Positions 1 through 6,641 of a stretch of 6,641 nucleotides of DNA are shown one piece after another (position 1 is the stretch's first letter; each line of letters opens with the position of its first letter). The position numbers and the translations under genes were made by a program. The notes beneath the pieces were generated by a model. The model saw only the letters and a program-made list of their open reading frames with translations, did no database searches and had not been told where the DNA came from. This stretch comes from a virus (taxonomy: Duplodnaviria; Heunggongvirae; Uroviricota; Caudoviricetes): positions 1 through 6,641 of IMG/VR virus record IMGVR_UViG_2713896729_000007; one strand, given 5' to 3'.

Positions 1-216
1 ATGAAATCCATGGACAAGTTAACAACGGGCATTGCCTACGGCACCTCCGCAGGCAGTGCTGGCTACTGGTTTTTACAGTGGCTTGATCAGGTCAGTCCAT
101 CACAGTGGGCTGCTATTGGTGTGCTGGGAAGTCTGGTTCTGGGCTTTCTGACTTACCTGACGAATCTGTACTTCAAAATAAGAGAAGACAAGCGTAAAGC
201 TGCGCGGGGAGAGTAA
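1..216 (+). CDS. Class II pinholin, phage 21 S-like (Qin essQ-like), 71 aa
   Basis: ORF begins at window position 1 with MKSMDK, the dual-start Met1/Met4 motif of S21 antiholin/holin; 71 aa with hydrophobic segments and a charged C-terminal tail ([13 protein letters not shown]); located immediately upstream of an endolysin and Rz/Rz1. Upstream sequence is not visible. Confidence 0.88.
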
Positions 217-220
217 TTCA

Positions 221-565
221 ATGACTCAAAACTATGAACTGATTGTGAAAGGGATCCGCAATTTTGAGAATAAAGTTACGGTAACTTTAGCGTTACGGGA
301 CAAAAAACGCTTTGACGGTGAAATTTTTGACCTGGACATCTCGCTGGACCGTGTTGAAGGTGCCGCGCTGGAGTTTTATGAGGCAGCAGCCAGAAGGAGC
401 ATCAGACAGGTCTTCCTGGATGTTGCTGCCGGGTTATGTGAAGGGGATGAGCTGTCGCCGGAAAAGCGCCCCATAATTTTAGAGGCGCAGAATGTGTGGA
501 TAACCTACAAAGGAAAGCTACCGGGAAGAATTACTGGTTCTCTGAAGACTCCGCCGAAATGGTAA
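221..565 (+). CDS. Holin-coupled 114-aa soluble hypothetical protein in the lysis cassette (possibly YdfR/DUF1327-like, from memory only)
   Basis: ATG at 221 lies 4 nt after the holin stop, with GGGGAGAG upstream as a Shine-Dalgarno; E. coli-like codon usage; no hydrophobic segment. Family assignment rests on recalled similarity of the N-terminus (MTQ.YEL.VKG.RNFENKVTVT) to the Qin ydfR product and is unverified. Confidence 0.6.
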   Translation: MTQNYELIVKGIRNFENKVTVTLALRDKKRFDGEIFDLDISLDRVEGAALEFYEAAARRSIRQVFLDVAAGLCEGDELSPEKRPIILEAQNVWITYKGKLPGRITGSLKTPPKW

Positions 566-803
566 TTTCACCAGCATATTTTTCTTCCAGTAATACCGCC
601 AGCCACTTGAAAGAATTTTGTTGTTGCTGGGACCATTTGGGGTTGAGTGATTCAAGCTGGAGCGATGCCAGTGTTGGTTGCATTTGTTCCTTGGGAATTG
701 AGAATGCCAGATATGAAAATGCGACAGTAAGGGCATTTACATCATCCCGAAGCTTGGAAATGCAGTCGAGCAACTCCTGTAGAGAAATGGTGCTATTGTC
801 CAT
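531..803 (-). CDS. Candidate 90-aa hypothetical protein convergent with the lysis operon
   Basis: ATG at 803..801 is preceded on the - strand by GAGAGG with a 7-nt spacer; a possible TTGAAT-N19-TACAAT promoter lies just upstream; the translation is helix-like and not low complexity. Its 3' end overlaps the 221-565 ORF by 35 nt. It could still be a chance ORF. Confidence 0.25.
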   Translation of the reverse strand: MDNSTISLQELLDCISKLRDDVNALTVAFSYLAFSIPKEQMQPTLASLQLESLNPKWSQQQQNSFKWLAVLLEEKYAGEITISAESSENQ

Positions 804-908
804 AAACAATCCTCTCTATTGTATTTAACTATTCCTTGCCTGATTCAACAGGCCGGGACAGATAAACATATCCAGGGTTCAGAAACCGATAAATCCTGAT
901 AAATATCC

Positions 909-1442
909 ATGAACGTAAAAATCAGATACGGCCTGTCGGCTGCCGTTCTGGCACTGATTGCCGTCGGTGCGCCTGCGCCTGATATTCTCGACCAGTTTCT
1001 GAATGAAAAAGAAGGTAACCACACAACGGCATACCGCGATGGTTCCGGCATCTGGACCATCTGTCGGGGTGCCACGGTGGTGGATGGAAAACCCGTTTTT
1101 CCCGGTATGAAACTGTCGAAGGAAAAATGCGACCAGGTTAACGCCATTGAACGGGATAAGGCGCTGGCATGGGTGGAGCGCAATATTAAAGTGCCACTGA
1201 CCGAACCACAGAAAGCGGGTATAGCGTCATTTTGTCCCTATAACATTGGCCCCGGTAAGTGTTTCCCGTCGACGTTTTATAAGCGGCTGAATGCCGGTGA
1301 TCGTAAGGGTGCATGCGAGGCGATTCGCTGGTGGATAAAAGATGGTGGGCGCGATTGCCGCATACGTTCAAATAACTGCTATGGACAGGTTATTCGTCGT
1401 GACCAGGAAAGCGCATTAGCCTGTTGGGGGATAGATCAGTGA
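909..1442 (+). CDS. SAR endolysin, T4-lysozyme-like muramidase (GH24), 177 aa (Qin rrrQ-like)
   Basis: Catalytic E-x8-D-x5-T motif ([16 protein letters not shown]); Gly/Ala-rich weakly hydrophobic N-terminus ([17 protein letters not shown]) typical of signal-arrest-release endolysins partnered with pinholins; stop codon overlaps the Rz start. Confidence 0.88.
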
Positions 1443-1809
1443 GCAGAGTCGCCGCGATTATTTATGCTCTGGTTATCTGCATCATCGTCTGCCTGTCGTG
1501 GGCGGTCAATCATTACCGTGATAACGCCATCGCCTACAAAGAACAGCGTGATAAAAAAGTCAGTGAGCTGAAGCAGGCGACCGCCACCATTACTGACATG
1601 CAGCAACGCCAGCGTGCTGCTGATGTACTCGATGCTAAATACACGAAGGAGTTGGCTGATGCGAAAGCTGAAAATGATGCTCTTCGGCGCAAGCTTGATA
1701 ATGGTGGTCGGGTGCTCGTCAAAGGAAAATGCTCTGTGCCATCCTCAGCCGAAACCTCCAGCGCCTCCGGCATGGGCAATGATGCCACCGTCGAACTCTC
1801 TCCAGTTGC
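1439..1809 (+). CDS. Rz-type i-spanin, 3' end truncated by the N gap
   Basis: GTG at 1439 overlaps the endolysin TGA (GTGA), preceded by GGGGGA with a 7-nt spacer; N-terminal transmembrane segment ([17 protein letters not shown]) followed by a charged, coiled-coil-like periplasmic region; runs into N run at 1810. Start could alternatively be TTG 1424. Confidence 0.78.
1659..1809 (+). CDS. Rz1-type o-spanin lipoprotein embedded in the +1 frame of Rz, 3' end truncated by the gap
   Basis: ATG at 1659 preceded by AAGGAG; product [19 protein letters not shown] with lipobox VVGC followed by a proline-rich region ([11 protein letters not shown]); lies entirely within Rz in another frame. Confidence 0.75.
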
Positions 1810-1819
1810 NNNNNNNNNN
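1810..1819. other. Assembly gap (10 N), probable scaffold join between two contigs
   Basis: Run of exactly 10 N; truncated genes on both sides; homologous Rz sequences converge on it from opposite strands. Confidence 0.9.
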
Positions 1820-1908
1820 AGAGGATGGCACAGGGCATTTTCCTTTGACGAGCACCCTGCCACCATTATCAAGCTTCCGCAGAAGAGCATCATTTTCAGC
1901 TTTCGCAT
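1820..1908 (-). CDS. rzoD: Rz1-type o-spanin lipoprotein, second copy, 3' end truncated by the gap
   Basis: ATG at 1908..1906 preceded on the - strand by AAGGAG; product [29 protein letters not shown] with lipobox VAGC; embedded in the second Rz. Symbol inferred from the DLP12-like gene order. Confidence 0.65.
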
Positions 1909-2128
1909 CAGCTAACTCCTTCGTGTATTTTGCATCGAGCGCAGCAACATCACGCTGACGCATCTGCATGTCAGTAATTGCCGCGTTCGCCAGCTTCAGT
2001 TCTCTGACATTTTTGTCGCGCTGGGCTTTGTAGGTAATGGCGTTATCACGGTAATGATTAACAGCCCATGACAGGCAGACGATGATGCAGATAACCAGAG
2101 CGGAGATAATCGCGGTTACTCTGTTCAT
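1820..2128 (-). CDS. rzpD: Rz-type i-spanin, second copy, 3' end truncated by the gap
   Basis: ATG at 2128..2126 overlaps the endolysin stop (ATGA); N-terminal transmembrane segment ([16 protein letters not shown]); roughly 88 percent nucleotide identity, by eye, to the reverse complement of 1439-1809. Confidence 0.78.
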
Positions 2129-2622
2129 TGCTGACCCCACAAACAGATTTCACGCTCAATCTCACGACGAGTCATGAGACCTTTCCATTGCTTACCGCCA
2201 GCATATGTCCAGCGACGTAGCTGATCACATGCGTCTTTGATATCGCCCTTGTTTATTTTGCGAAGAAGCGTCGATGTTCTGAAATTGCCAGCACCCACGT
2301 TGTAAACGAATGAGTAAAGAGCGCCGCGCATTGTTTCCGGTATATCGACTTTGATGTACGGGTTAATTTGTCTGGCGACCGTGGCAAGGTCTTTATTCAG
2401 GAGGGCTTTGCATTCTGCTTTGGTATACGTTTTACCGAGCATGATGTCTTTTCCTGTATGCCCGTGACATACAGTCCATACACCAACAATATCTTTGTAT
2501 GGTATGTAGCTGACACCTTCCAGACCATCGTTACCACTTGGGCCAGTAATTAACACTGATGCTATAGCAATTGCTCCGCCACCAATAGCAGCAGCAACGG
2601 CTTTTCGTAATGATGGAGGCAT
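2125..2622 (-). CDS. rrrD: SAR endolysin, phage 21 R-like, T4-lysozyme-like muramidase, 165 aa (DLP12 rrrD-like)
   Basis: Begins [27 protein letters not shown] (SAR domain); E-x8-D-x5-T motif ([16 protein letters not shown]); ATG overlaps the holin TAA by 1 nt; 165 aa. Confidence 0.88.
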
Positions 2623-2837
2623 TATTCACCTCTCGCAGCCTTGCGCTTATCTTCTTTAATCTTGAAATAAAGGTTTGTCAGGTACGTCAGCAGGCCAAAT
2701 ACCAGGCTACCCAGCACACCTATTGCTGCCCACTGTGAGGGCGTGACTTTATCGAGCAGCTGTAAAAACCAGTAACCGGCACTACCTGCTGAGGTGCCAT
2801 AGGCGACACCCGTTGTTAACTTATCCATGGATTTCAT
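2622..2837 (-). CDS. essD: Class II pinholin, phage 21 S-like, 71 aa (DLP12 essD-like)
   Basis: [16 protein letters not shown] dual-start motif; ATG at 2837..2835 preceded by GGTGGGG with about 6 nt spacing. The 86-aa version in the ORF track is an N-terminal extension without a better ribosome-binding site. Confidence 0.85.
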
Positions 2838-3424
2838 AACCCCACCTCGCAGACAAAGCGGGTGTAAATTGAGGGAATACAACGTATCGCAAAAAAGCAG
2901 AAACGTAACAGACTCGGAGTCAGTGAATAACTCAGGTATTGGGTTATCAGCTAATATCGAGACTCAAAAAATGGAAAAATCCGCTCGACGGCGGGTTTAA
3001 GCTGTGTGACGAAGTAACCACTCTTAACAGCATAACCAATTTTTTACGTACGTAAACCACTAAATGATATTTGCGAGAATGCTACCGAGTATTGAAAACA
3101 CCACTACAAATACATAAGCAAATCTCAACAAATAACCAACAAATAATTTCCAGCGTTATTTTTAGCTGGTTTAAATTGAATCTTCAAATTATAGAGCACT
3201 TATAAATAACAGCCATTAATATAAATTGGCTAATAGATTTATTTTTATTCAGCCAAGAGCCATGAATAGGATTCGATAGAAAAAGTTCAGATAAAAATAG
3301 AGATCTACTTCACAAATCAAATGAGAAACCAAAACTTACATCTTGAAATAATCACATTGATTAGATGAATATTTATCGCGCAGTGACATCATTTTTTAAT
3401 AATAGTTCAAAAAAAGGGCTCACG
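2838..3424. promoter_or_regulatory. AT-rich divergent control region between the holin (-) and the porin (+)
   Basis: About 590 bp, strongly AT-rich with many A/T tracts (3050-3400), no convincing ORF, directly upstream of the porin start at 3425; exact promoter elements not resolved. Confidence 0.4.
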
Positions 3425-4507
3425 ATGAAAAAATTAACAGTGGCAATTTCTGCTGTAGCTGCATCAGTACTGATGGCGATGTCTGCTCAGGCAGCTGAAA
3501 TTTATAATAAAGACAGTAACAAGCTGGATCTGTACGGGAAAGTTAATGCTAAGCACTACTTCTCCTCTAATGATGCAGATGATGGTGATACTACTTATGC
3601 CCGTCTTGGCTTCAAAGGTGAAACCCAAATCAACGATCAACTGACTGGTTTCGGTCAGTGGGAATATGAATTCAAAGGCAACCGCGCTGAATCTCAAGGT
3701 TCCTCCAAAGATAAAACCCGTCTTGCCTTCGCTGGCCTGAAATTCGGTGACTACGGCTCCATCGATTATGGCCGTAACTACGGTGTAGCATACGATATTG
3801 GTGCATGGACCGACGTTCTGCCAGAATTCGGTGGCGATACCTGGACCCAAACAGATGTATTCATGACTGGTCGCACCACAGGTGTTGCAACTTATCGTAA
3901 CAATGACTTCTTTGGTCTGGTTGATGGTCTGAACTTTGCTGCTCAGTATCAGGGTAAAAATGACCGCACTGACGTAACTGAAGCTAATGGTGATGGTTTC
4001 GGTTTCTCCACTACTTATGAGTATGAAGGATTCGGTGTAGGTGCAACCTATGCTAAATCTGACCGCACTAATAATCAGGTTATCTACGGTAACAACAGCC
4101 TGAATGCATCTGGTCAAAATGCTGAAGTATGGGCAGCTGGTCTGAAATATGATGCGAACAACATCTATCTGGCTACCACCTATTCTGAAACCCAGAACAT
4201 GACTGTTTTTGGTAATAACCATATTGCCAACAAAGCACAAAACTTCGAAGTAGTTGCACAATATCAGTTCGACTTCGGTCTGCGTCCGTCCGTTGCTTAC
4301 CTGCAATCTAAAGGAAAAGACTTGGGTGCGTGGGGTGATCAGGACTTGGTTGAATATATTGATGTAGGTGCAACCTATTACTTCAACAAAAATATGTCCA
4401 CTTTTGTTGATTACAAAATCAACCTGATTGATAAGAGCGATTTCACGAAAGCATCTGGCGTTGCTACCGATGATATCGTTGCTGTAGGTATGGTTTACCA
4501 GTTCTAA
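3425..4507 (+). CDS. nmpC: General-diffusion outer-membrane porin of the OmpC/OmpF/NmpC family, intact, 360 aa
   Basis: Signal peptide [23 protein letters not shown] followed by [16 protein letters not shown]; conserved porin motifs ([17 protein letters not shown]-terminal VYQF with terminal Phe); position between a Q-like gene and the S-like holin on the opposite strand matches DLP12. The track ORF start at 3365 was rejected in favour of ATG 3425 directly before the signal peptide. Confidence 0.9.
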
Positions 4508-4522
4508 TTTGATTACTAAAAG

Positions 4523-4556
4523 ATATGTTGCGGGAGGCTTTGCCTCCCCAACATAT
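4523..4556. terminator. Long imperfect hairpin 16 nt after the porin stop; candidate bidirectional or - strand (tR'-like) terminator
   Basis: atatgttg-c-gggaggc ttt gcctccc caacatat forms a 15-bp stem with one bulge; on the - strand it is followed by CTTTTAG; on the + strand it is not followed by a T run. Confidence 0.4.
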
Positions 4557-4644
4557 AAGTGGCTCCCTCAAGCCACTTCCTTTAGGAGCACAACCTTGCT
4601 TCTAACTATATAAACCTTCTGTTATATATTACCCTTTATTTTTG

Positions 4645-4669
4645 GGGGCGTCTCAACGCCCCATTTTTA
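4645..4669 (+). terminator. Rho-independent terminator, + strand
   Basis: ggggcgt ctca acgcccc (7-bp GC-rich stem, 4-nt loop) followed by ATTTTTAA; on the - strand it is followed by an A run, so it is unidirectional. Confidence 0.5.
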
Positions 4670-4695
4670 ATAACTTTTAGTAAATAATTGGCGTA

Positions 4696-5058
4696 TTAAT
4701 TAGAGTTATTAACAACGATATCCATCTCTAACCGGATATCTAATGCCATTAACATCCCTTCAATTATGCCCTCAGCCTTCTGTAACCTTTTCCCGATATA
4801 ACCATCAGAGCAGCAATGCTTACCTGCCAGTGACATGAATGTCATACCGACTACATAATAATCTACTAATAAATCGTGCAAATCGCTGTTGTTCTTTTTC
4901 AGACGGGCCATGCACCCGCAAATGATCATCGCGTCATCGTCACAACATTGCGGGCGAGATTTTACTTTTGAAGTAATTAATCCCTTAAAACCGGCGGCAA
5001 TGGACGACCAGGTCACATCTTCATGATTATTAGCCGCCCACGCTCCCCAACGCTCAAG
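4696..5058 (-). CDS. quuD: Q-like late-gene antiterminator, C-terminal about 120 aa; N-terminus lost in the gap
   Basis: Reading frame with paired cysteines (QCCDDD, CGC, KHCC) suggesting zinc binding; stop at 4698..4696; its position relative to the porin and holin matches DLP12 order quuD-nmpC-essD. Identity is recalled from the DLP12 QuuD (phage 82 Q family) sequence, unverified. Confidence 0.55.
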
Positions 5059-5068
5059 NNNNNNNNNN
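5059..5068. other. Assembly gap (10 N), probable scaffold join
   Basis: Run of exactly 10 N separating a 5' lom fragment from unrelated Q-like coding sequence. Confidence 0.9.
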
Positions 5069-5346
5069 CGTAAGGAATCTTCATGCCAGCGGGTATCGCT
5101 GTAACGGGTCAGCTGGCGATTCTTGTCTCCTGCATAGCTGAATGACGTCACCAGCCCTAGTGTGTCCGTAAACTCATAACGGTATTTCACGTTAATCCCG
5201 TTCAGATCATCGCTGCCGGGAACGTTCGTCGAGGCATGAAGATAGCCCGCGCTCAGCGTGGACTGATGTTCAGACGCCCATGCAGGCGCACCGGATACGG
5301 CCAGACAGATGGCTGCGGACAAAATGGCGGCATAAAGTTTACGCAT
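5069..5346 (-). CDS. lom: Lom outer-membrane protein (Ail/OmpX/PagC family), N-terminal 92 aa only; truncated at the gap
   Basis: MRKLYAAILSAAICLAVSGAPAWA signal peptide followed by SEHQSTLSAGYLHASTN...YAGDKNRQLTRYSDTRWHEDS, near-identical to lambda Lom as recalled; ATG at 5346 preceded by GAGAGG with a 6-nt spacer; lies immediately downstream of J as in lambda. Confidence 0.85.
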
Positions 5347-5366
5347 AATTACCTCTCGCTTTTCTG

Positions 5367-5394
5367 CAATAAAAAAGGCGCCAGAAATGGCGCC
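5367..5394 (-). terminator. Rho-independent terminator after J, - strand
   Basis: ggcgcc agaaat ggcgcc stem-loop followed on the - strand by TTTTTTATT; about 20 nt downstream of the J stop. Confidence 0.55.
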
Positions 5395-5414
5395 CGCATA
5401 TGGGTTATGAAAAT

Positions 5415-6641
5415 TCAGCTAATCGTGATACCTGCTGTGGATTTCTTCATCACCACAACCAGCAAATCGCTGATACTGGCTGTGGGATACCAGTCATTTA
5501 CCAGCCACGCTGATACCGAAAACTCCAGCGTCATGTGACCGCGACCAGCAGGCATATCAATAACACCTGTATAAACCAGCGTATTATCCAGCGCGGTACG
5601 GTTATAAATTTCAGCACCGTTTTTCTTCACTATCAGGCGGCATGACGAATAAATATCGTTATTCTCCCGCTCATGTTTAGCGCCACGAAACGCCACCGCG
5701 GGAATAACAATCTGCCGGTCAAACGGCTGATCGTCATAAACCCTGACGGTAATGGTCCCTGATGGCCACCGCTCCGGTGCACGGGAGTCCCGGGGGAAAG
5801 CTTTGCCCACTGTTTTAACGAGATCGCCTTCAATCTGGTTCGCGGACAGTTTTCCCAGAACCCGACAGTTCTCGTTAATCGTGACATTGTTGAGCGTCCC
5901 GGCGTTCGCATTCACACTGCCACTGATATCCGCATTTTTAGCGGTCAGCTTTCCGTCCGGTGTCAGGGAAAATACCGGTGGATTTCCACCACTGGTAATG
6001 GTGGGGGCCGTCAGGCGTTTGAGGAACACGTCGTTCATGAATATCTGGTTGCCCTGCGCCACAAACATCGGCGTTTCATTCCCGTTTGCCGGGTCAATAA
6101 ACGCGATACGATTGGCGGCAACCAGAAACTGGCTCAGTTTGCCTTCCTCTGTATCCTCCATGCTGAGGCCAAGCCCCGCGACATAATGTTTGCCGTCTTT
6201 GGTCTGCTCAATTTTGACGCCCCACATGGCATTCCATTTATCGTTGGCGTCTTTCCACTCTTTCGAAAACTCCTCCAGTCTGCTGGCGTTATCCTCCGTC
6301 AGGTCGACTTTTTCCAGCAGCTCCTTGCCGAGATGGGATTCGGTTATCAGGCCTTTGAAAAAATCCAGGTAACCTTCCGCATCATCGCTCGCCCGACCGA
6401 CGGCCTCCACAAATGCCGATTTGCCAACGGTGTTCACACTGCGGATATAAAAGTAATAATCATGGCCCGGTTTGATATTGATACTGGCGGCTATCCAGTA
6501 CAGCGCCGTACCAAGATAGCGGGCTGTGGTTTCAACCTGCCTGATATCGGTAATCCGCGTTTCCGAGAACCAGAACTCAAACTGTACCGTCGGATCATAA
6601 ACCGCAAGATGCGGCGTGGCGGTTATCTGAAAATAGCCCGG
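5415..6641 (-). CDS. J: Tail tip / host-specificity protein J, C-terminal about 408 aa; 5' end beyond the window
   Basis: Frame is open from the window edge at 6641 ([33 protein letters not shown]...) to the stop at 5417..5415 and ends ...[17 protein letters not shown], matching the lambda J C-terminal region as recalled. The internal start at 6437 in the ORF track is an artefact. Confidence 0.9.

Follow-up and report, generated by a model that had tools for sequence, protein, structure and literature searches.

The general porin NmpC of Escherichia coli K-12 is encoded in the lambdoid prophage DLP12 (qsr'), in which its gene lies between the antiterminator gene quuD and the lysis genes essD, rrrD and rzpD and is read from the opposite strand. 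In strain MG1655, IS5B interrupts nmpC after codon 346, and the gene carries a pseudogene annotation. Phage PA-2 carries a closely related gene, lc (J02580), in the same cassette beside its lysis genes, and the chromosomal OmpD porins of Salmonella, Citrobacter and Enterobacter belong to the same clade. Shiga toxin (Stx)-converting phages likewise hold accessory cargo, stx, between Q and S of a lambdoid genome. In this study, a window of 6,641 nucleotides (the whole stretch of DNA analysed, positions 1 to 6,641 of IMG/VR virus record IMGVR_UViG_2713896729_000007) was found to have the layout of DLP12, with a porin gene at 3425-4507. The window very probably contains, in intact form, the NmpC/Lc porin cassette of a lambdoid prophage of the DLP12 type, with separate host and late promoters. 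The porin, its prophage location, the IS5 lesion of K-12, control by CRP and the small RNA IpeX are already known, and the exact protein is abundant in databases; what is added here is the placement of the cassette relative to the late promoter pR', the composite nature of its "upstream region", prevalence figures and a mosaic allele.

The porin gene comprises the following features:
3425-4507, + strand: intact NmpC/Lc-type general porin (signal peptide 3425-3493, mature protein 3494-4504, stop 4505-4507)
3800-4507, + strand: divergent 3' two-thirds of the porin gene, a mosaic segment (breakpoint approximate)

The frame extends from the ATG at 3425 to the TAA ending at 4507, giving 360 codons plus stop, without frameshift or internal stop. 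The protein matched Pfam Porin_1 (PF00267) with E = 3.1e-153 over profile positions 1-337 of 337 and scored 518 bits against the NCBIfam OmpC-subfamily model (cutoff 484); it fell below the NCBIfam equivalog cutoffs for OmpF and PhoE. Solved trimeric structures of OmpC, OmpK36, PhoE and OmpF were matched with E values of about 1e-137 to 1e-116. By direct reading, the signal peptide has 23 residues ending in AQA and is followed by AEIYNK; its 69 nt (3425-3493) are the stretch annotated as sig_peptide in the PA-2 lc record. The C-terminus reads ...VGMVYQF, with the terminal Phe as the aromatic beta-signal residue, and the loop-3 constriction motif PEFGG (P133 E134 F135 G136 G137), (nearly) invariant in alignments with OmpC, OmpF, PhoE, OmpN and OmpD, is present. 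An alternative reading of 380 aa from 3365 would add 20 residues ahead of the signal peptide and uses the start of some 385-aa database entries. The window is a scaffold of three contigs joined by 10-N runs at 1810-1819 and 5059-5068; since the porin, a Q fragment and the holin gene all lie on the gap-free middle piece (1820-5058), the joins have no effect on the porin finding. A preliminary description of this DNA had proposed a complete, uninterrupted porin of 360 aa with signal peptide and C-terminal Phe, situated between a Q-like gene and the holin and on the opposite strand. The frame reading, the profile matches and the location on one contig agree with it, and realignment revealed neither a frameshift nor a premature stop.

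For comparison with K-12, the NmpC protein was restored by excising IS5 together with one of the CTAA copies of its target duplication. The porin was 91.6% identical to this protein, 91.4% to Lc of PA-2 and 80-82% to Salmonella OmpD; identities to the other K-12 porins were 63.6% (OmpC), 62.0% (OmpF), 64.5% (PhoE) and 68.0% (OmpN). In a neighbour-joining tree, it branched within the NmpC/Lc group, to which the OmpD-type proteins formed the nearest clade. The alignments to NmpC, OmpD and Lc envisaged earlier therefore place it in the NmpC/Lc/OmpD clade and not with chromosomal OmpC/OmpF; the gene is neither frameshifted nor closest to chromosomal ompC or ompF. At NCBI, the identical protein represents a cluster of 2741 members under the name "porin OmpC [E. 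coli]", and its PHROGs family, phrog_410, is labelled "unknown function". The RefSeq/NCBI and PHROGs labels are annotation artefacts, not biology.

Identity to K-12 DLP12 is 96-100% in the flanks, in the upstream region and over the initial ~375 nt of the gene, and the first 147 aa, including the signal peptide, are the same. K-12 NmpC differs in having 365 aa and the IS5 insertion, whereas the window porin has 360 aa and no IS5. Lc has the same 23-residue signal peptide; it is a 365-aa K-12-like allele, 98.9% identical to NmpC, while the allele in the window differs in loops L4-L8. Chromosomal OmpD shares ~76-81% identity over the mature protein, but the Salmonella locus has a non-phage context (EamA transporter, MFS, TetR). 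A shared upstream region was considered for chromosomal ompD and rejected: in the ompD loci of Salmonella arizonae, Citrobacter, Enterobacter and relatives, DNA homology is limited to 3491-4507, from the mature N-terminus to the stop. The signal peptide, promoter region and 3' untranslated region (UTR) are therefore specific to the phage cassette.

The order quuD, porin (opposite strand), essD and rrrD is that of DLP12 in MG1655 and is also found in strain A14 (99.8% identity), in which the flanking genes are DLP12-like (bor, ybcV, ybcW, ylcI and nohD on one side; ylcG, rusA, ybcO, ninE and ybcN on the other). The Q-porin-holin block (2437 bases, 2622-5058), counted as present at a coverage of at least 80%, occurred in 2397 of 5426 complete E. 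coli genomes (~44%). The best genome matches were 99.8% identical, and 95 records reached at least 99%. Thirty-six phage records carry the porin block, with the porin annotated as OmpD, NmpC or OmpC. The nmpC::IS5 junction of K-12 was detected in only 282 of the 5426 genomes. Since the block is present in 2397 genomes and the junction in 282, intact nmpC is the normal state and K-12 the exception. The disruption by IS5 in K-12 had been given correctly in the preliminary description; treating the intact frame as a notable feature is not warranted by these counts.

Two other copies of the cassette were encountered. Escherichia albertii NBRC 107761 (locus L027, 231-2667) has a diverged porin cassette with 83% DNA identity from promoter to terminator; it adjoins bor and then runs straight into chromosomal genes (ycgL, minD-like), without Q or lysis genes, and looks like a stranded prophage remnant. 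It shares 3293-4671 with the window, and this match delimits what is, judged from conservation, the functional core of the cassette, promoter to terminator. Laboratory phage 434B (OL657227, locus L002, 2789-5085) carries a DLP12-derived Q-nmpC::IS5-S region in which IS5 occupies the K-12 site, after codon 346; this indicates that the phage took up the K-12 qsr' segment by recombination.

The relation of the porin to late transcription depends on the following features:
4696-5058, - strand: QuuD-type antiterminator Q, 3' 120 codons (Pfam Phage_antitermQ, E = 1.8e-48)
3056-3029, - strand: Q-dependent late promoter pR' (by homology), with -35 TTTACG at 3056-3051, -10 TATGCT at 3034-3029 and start near 3022
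2975-2995, - strand: tR'-like terminator of the short late leader RNA, hairpin plus T-run, CCCGCCGTCGAGCGGATTTTT, aligned with the terminator annotated in Stx phage 06-3462 (locus L089, 699-721)
2622-2837, - strand: S21-type holin/antiholin EssD with dual start M1/M4 (Pfam Phage_holin_2_1, E = 2e-35; essD in the best genome matches)
2125-2622, - strand: RrrD-type (SAR) endolysin (Pfam Phage_lysozyme, E = 2.5e-45; annotated rrrD or SAR endolysin)

The 587-bp interval between holin and porin (2838-3424) was searched against phage genomes. As a whole, it was matched only by the 36 porin-carrying phages; about 290 further records, mostly porin-less Stx phages, matched positions 2975-3057 only. This pR'-tR' block is present in 356 phage records, mostly without the porin. 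In Stx phage 06-3462, the matching segment is annotated as late promoter pR' plus terminator, immediately after Q, and the pR' of the window aligns with the annotated one (L089, 754-781). QuuD of K-12 is 78% identical to Q of this phage and distantly related to Q21 (PDB 6P18). In a relaxed scan, the pR' homologue was the only promoter-like match on the - strand. The initial-transcribed block downstream of it is invariant across DLP12, Stx phage and SfII; the tR' stem reads GCGGA here versus GCGGG in K-12, Stx phage and SfII, one G-C pair weaker.

Homology to the Stx phage covers Q (4747-5058) and pR'-tR' (2975-3057), which are separated by 89 nt in 06-3462 and by 1690 nt in the window. Homology between the Q proteins ends near codon 120 (~4720), and the spacer between porin and Q (4508-4700) occurs only in the 36 porin-carrying phage records. 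From these alignments, we conclude that a porin cassette of ~1.66 kb (~3058-4720) appears to sit between Q and pR' and to point away from pR'. Being upstream of pR' and divergent from it, the porin would therefore be outside the Q-dependent late transcript. The placement of the porin inside the late operon, as first described, is thus not sustained, the pR'-tR' homologue (3056-2975, - strand) being on the holin side. Its classification as a moron, an extra gene cassette absent at the same position in relatives, is supported by both the Q-pR' spacing and the record counts (356 versus 36). Regarding signals of its own, a terminator was predicted at 4645-4668, and the promoter, missed by a strict scan, has been mapped in the 98-99% identical region of K-12 (PMC11677980). 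The GC content of the porin coding sequence (43.6%) does not differ from that of the contig (42.9%), whereas that of the 5' spacer (29.2%) clearly does.

The likeness to stx of Stx-converting phages consists in the position between Q and S, a Q with 78% identity and a homologous pR'-tR'. In 06-3462, however, pR' overlaps the end of Q, and the terminator and tRNA genes are downstream of pR' on the same strand; a tRNA scan found none in the window, while the Q-S interval of Stx phages has tRNAs. Expression of stx from the Q-dependent transcript is reported (PMC8065619). The porin cassette differs in being upstream of pR' on the opposite strand and, by analogy with K-12, would have its own host-regulated promoter in the lysogen. 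Upstream of the holin, the window has 16 extra bases (at ~2880-2897) relative to K-12 DLP12; since SfII has the long form, K-12 probably carries a 16-base deletion.

The interval upstream of the porin and its 3' end contain the following elements:
3058-3424: strongly AT-rich spacer between the divergent porin and late promoters (367 bp, 29.2% GC)
3226-3424, + strand: proximal porin promoter region, equivalent of -199..-1 in K-12 (98-99% identical)
3297-3317: CRP binding site 2 of the PA-2 lc annotation, ATAGAGATCTACTTCACAAAT (21/21 identical to J02580 misc_binding 1363-1383)
3002-3022: CRP binding site 1 of the PA-2 lc annotation (21/21 identical to J02580 misc_binding 1067-1087)
3376-3407, - strand: sigmaE-like promoter toward the holin, with GAACTA at 3407-3402, N16 and TCACT at 3385-3381, read directly
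4508-4668, + strand: structured porin 3' UTR, IpeX small-RNA region of DLP12, with intrinsic terminator (stem 4645-4662 plus T-run)

The interval of 587 bp has 34.2% GC overall and is not uniform. An AT-rich upstream region of 590 bp had been described; 367 of the 587 bases are indeed strongly AT-rich, and the remaining ~220 bp (2838-3057, 42.7% GC) are late promoter, terminator and holin leader. Apart from the 16-nt indel near 2880-2897, the interval is 96-99% identical to K-12, and regulatory results obtained with K-12 are therefore transferable with reasonable confidence. In BW25113, PnmpC was reported as a typical sigma-70 promoter in the region -199..-1 of the ATG, with the transcription start site (TSS), a G, mapped by 5'RACE; deletion of -199..-1 abolished its activity, CRP activated it at two sites, OmpR, IHF and MprA repressed it, and small-RNA control was described (PMC11677980). 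Genomic SELEX also lists nmpC among CRP targets (PMC3105977).

Our best guess for PnmpC in the window is a candidate with -35 TTGAAA (3343-3348), N18, -10 GAATAT (3367-3372) and the TSS at a G near 3378-3380. Its elements are covered by blocks conserved with the E. albertii copy, TCTTGAAATA and ATTGATTAGATGAATA, and from this start we infer that CRP site 2 would be centred near -72. The prediction of promoters and binding sites in 2838-3424, suggested as a check, succeeded in part: CRP site 2 was found independently, as an 8/10 match to TGTGA-N6-TCACA at 3297-3317, and is conserved in E. albertii, but the strict promoter scan was empty, and on the + strand the relaxed scan yielded nothing beyond weak candidates. 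CRP site 1 covers the initial ~20 nt of the pR'-like leader, at a distance of ~400 nt from where the porin begins, and may therefore concern the late/lysis promoter rather than the porin.

Several reports bear on expression. Among the 78 "promoter islands" of K-12 is the nmpC/essD interval, which H-NS occupies in every chromatin immunoprecipitation (ChIP) data set (PMC3661553). This island, 576129_354, nmpC(-)/essD(+), maps to about 2990-3343 of the window and thus takes in most of the AT-rich spacer. It was placed with the offset of 778 bp between U00096.2 and U00096.3, which fits the island's intergenic label. On a shift from 23 to 37 C, nmpC mRNA rose 16.5-fold (PMC8544407). In K-12 NCM3722, in which nmpC is uninterrupted, NmpC amounted to ~2% of the proteome under carbon limitation, where it is the characteristic porin, and was 200-fold above the MG1655-background strain EQ353 (PMC8144880). 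The nmpC mRNA is a target of RybB (PMC3333887). RNAduplex predictions of RybB and MicC against the porin 5' region were no better than with shuffled targets, and the RybB seed complement CAGTGGC at 3438-3444 is a 7-mer only, with 4 occurrences in the window; RybB control is therefore taken from the literature. Dense host regulation independent of the late programme, as proposed earlier, is supported by these K-12 reports, given the 96-99% identity to K-12 and the identical CRP sites. Silencing as the main state, which was also proposed, does not agree with the abundance of NmpC in NCM3722, and H-NS silencing would at most be a modulating layer.

A further promoter may be directed toward the lysis genes. 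The motif GAACTA-N16-TCACT was called against the sigmaE consensus. An amplicon of the DLP12 SRRz operon was published in 2021 as spanning -121..+650 (PMC7918800). Its forward primer, Pdlp12Fw, maps to 3497->3478 and places the SRRz "+1" at ~3376 on the - strand; the reverse primer as printed, Pdlp12Rv, is three bases short, had no ungapped match and was located by eye at ~2712-2733. The numbering of the amplicon reportedly comes from Rueggeberg 2015, on an RpoE-dependent promoter. Since this "+1" is ~350 nt further upstream than pR', more than one promoter feeds the lysis genes. Transcription of the porin and of the lysis cassette would then start back to back within ~5 nt, with the sigmaE-like motif overlapping the porin 5' UTR on the opposite strand.

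The porin 3' UTR (161 nt plus T-tail) is 95-97% identical to K-12 DLP12 and folds into five hairpins with -61 kcal/mol (z = -8.6 versus shuffles). IpeX is a 167-nt DLP12 RNA that is part of the porin transcript (PMC12197685) and lowers OmpC and OmpF (PMC12197685, PMC7177473). By alignment, positions 4508-4668 correspond to IpeX. An Rfam scan of the whole window at E <= 1 gave no match, Rfam having no IpeX model.

The porin gene itself is a mosaic. DNA identity to K-12 is 97-100% up to ~3800, 74-86% from there to the stop and 95-100% thereafter. Over codons 1-125, synonymous divergence (dS) from K-12 amounts to 0.05; over codons 126-360, it reaches 0.96, with a nonsynonymous divergence (dN) of 0.08. 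The dS values of 0.96 versus 0.05 argue that the distal two-thirds came by recombination from a long-diverged allele, and its dN and dS suggest that this segment is under purifying selection overall. An AlphaFold2 (AF2) model was used only for strand and loop limits; with these low-confidence limits, the predicted surface loops L4, L5, L6 and L8 hold 28 of the 36 amino-acid differences from K-12, and the periplasmic turns hold none. Such loop-centred change is typical of surface-exposed porins serving as phage and colicin receptors and as antigens.

In the proposed mechanism, host sigma-70 polymerase would transcribe the porin and IpeX from PnmpC while the prophage is repressed. cAMP-CRP would activate PnmpC, giving high expression under carbon limitation, and expression would also rise at 37 C; OmpR, IHF, MprA and H-NS acting on the AT-rich spacer, and the envelope-stress small RNA RybB, would damp it. 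The precursor would be exported via Sec, BAM would assemble it into a general diffusion pore that is trimeric and 16-stranded, and the 3' UTR would be processed into IpeX, which would lower OmpC and OmpF. The lysis genes would be served by separate - strand promoters, namely a sigmaE-type promoter and pR' with Q; transcription from pR' (3056-3029) would read through tR' (2995-2975) into S-R-Rz and never cross the porin gene. In this scheme, promoter activity, regulators, expression level and IpeX function are carried over from literature on the 96-99% identical K-12/PA-2 region, while integrity, family and clade, synteny, prevalence, pR'/tR' homology, CRP-site identity and the mosaic allele were observed here.

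Some points weigh against the reading as an intact cassette with separate promoters. The AF2 model has 16 strands at low confidence (mean pLDDT 58). The pR' call is based on 76% DNA homology to an annotation labelled "putative" and itself transferred by similarity; the late leader folded alone gave no significant signal and a weak tR' hairpin, and the published SRRz "+1" lies well upstream of pR'. On the porin side, the strict sigma-70 scan found no promoter in 2838-3424, and the -10 of the candidate PnmpC is weak (3/6). In E. coli B, nmpC is reportedly termed "quiescent", according to the title of Prilipov 1998.

The last of these points is part of the case for a porin that is intact and transcriptionally silent in the host, a reserve gene under an H-NS-coated spacer that is expressed only after mutation. 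The 29% GC of the porin-side spacer suits such a gene, and so does the H-NS-bound island, islands of this kind being mostly unproductive (PMC3661553). PnmpC of K-12 nevertheless yields a 5'RACE product and drives the IS5 transposase (PMC11677980), and neither the proteome share of ~2% with an uninterrupted gene (PMC8144880) nor the 16.5-fold induction at 37 C (PMC8544407) would be expected of it; we regard a silent porin as unlikely. A different arrangement would have pR' directly downstream of Q, so that the porin is inside the Q-dependent late unit with the late transcript running antisense across it, and induction would shut the porin down by transcriptional interference or antisense RNA. 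The gene order, with the porin between Q and S, would allow this; pR' normally abuts Q in lambda-like phages and overlaps its end in the Stx phage, and direct reading shows - strand hairpins at 4558-4525 followed by CTTTT. However, the only stretch homologous to an annotated pR'-tR', that of a phage whose Q is 78% identical, lies on the holin side (3057-2975), the spacer 4508-4700 is found only together with the porin and gave no promoter-like site in the scan, and work on the DLP12 lysis operon puts the regulatory region between nmpC and essD (PMC7918800). An antisense late transcript is accordingly quite improbable.

A chromosomal OmpC/OmpF paralogue placed among phage genes by a scaffold artefact was also considered, as the best NCBIfam model is the OmpC subfamily, the RefSeq name is OmpC and the window has two 10-N joins. 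It was rejected: porin, Q fragment and holin share the gap-free piece 1820-5058, the arrangement is contiguous in thousands of complete genomes, and identity is 63.6% to K-12 OmpC versus 91.6% to NmpC. The probability left to it is negligible.

Beyond the intact cassette with separate promoters, a more specific combination is put forward tentatively and is rather doubtful as a whole: that the cassette was inserted exactly between Q and pR', replacing the last ~20 codons of a 933W-type Q, that one spacer bound by H-NS and CRP has two divergent outputs, and that the 3' two-thirds of the porin gene was exchanged as a unit. One of these outputs would be the porin under host control together with IpeX, the other the lysis cassette, dependent on sigmaE and Q. 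Through the CRP site over the initial 20 nt of the pR' leader, late/lysis read-through could become coupled to carbon status. If true, unit exchange of the loop-encoding part of the porin between near-identical prophages would vary the surface that serves as phage receptor or antigen. No statement of these three points was found in the literature covered, which did not include the primary nmpC/lc papers.

The remaining genes of the window are distributed over the three pieces of the scaffold. On the middle piece, the - strand carries Q, the holin gene and the beginning of Rz, all opposite in direction to the porin. The Q fragment lacks its first ~7 codons, cut off by the gap at 5059-5068, and its DNA over 4701-5000 is 100% identical to K-12 quuD. 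The order and orientation of the three pieces are not trustworthy, and the open reading frames that cross the gaps are artefacts: 4696-5346 (-), a fusion of the Q C-terminus with the Lom N-terminus, 1424-1915 (+) and 1745-2140 (-). A second lambdoid lysis cassette, unlike the first, occupies window 1-1809 and probably stems from a further prophage in this genome; two genes of unknown function separate its holin from its endolysin. The features of the two outer pieces are:
1-216: S21-type holin, second lysis cassette
221-565: DUF1327/phrog_406 protein, second lysis cassette
531-809, opposite strand: phrog_2411 open reading frame, second lysis cassette
909-1442: 177-aa lysozyme, second lysis cassette
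1439-1809: Rz, second lysis cassette
5069-5346, - strand: Lom/Ail outer-membrane protein, N-terminal 92 residues, third contig
5415-6437 and beyond, - strand: tail tip protein J, C-terminal receptor-binding part, third contig

As a discovery, the porin carries little weight, NmpC/Lc having been studied since the 1970s-80s and the exact protein having thousands of database entries. It underlines that the IS5-broken nmpC of K-12 is atypical. Placing the cassette upstream of pR' sets right an obvious yet mistaken idea of how it relates to the late operon. Names assigned automatically either mislead or say nothing about what may be a major porin under carbon limitation, a receptor for phages and colicins and the source of a small RNA that lowers OmpC and OmpF.

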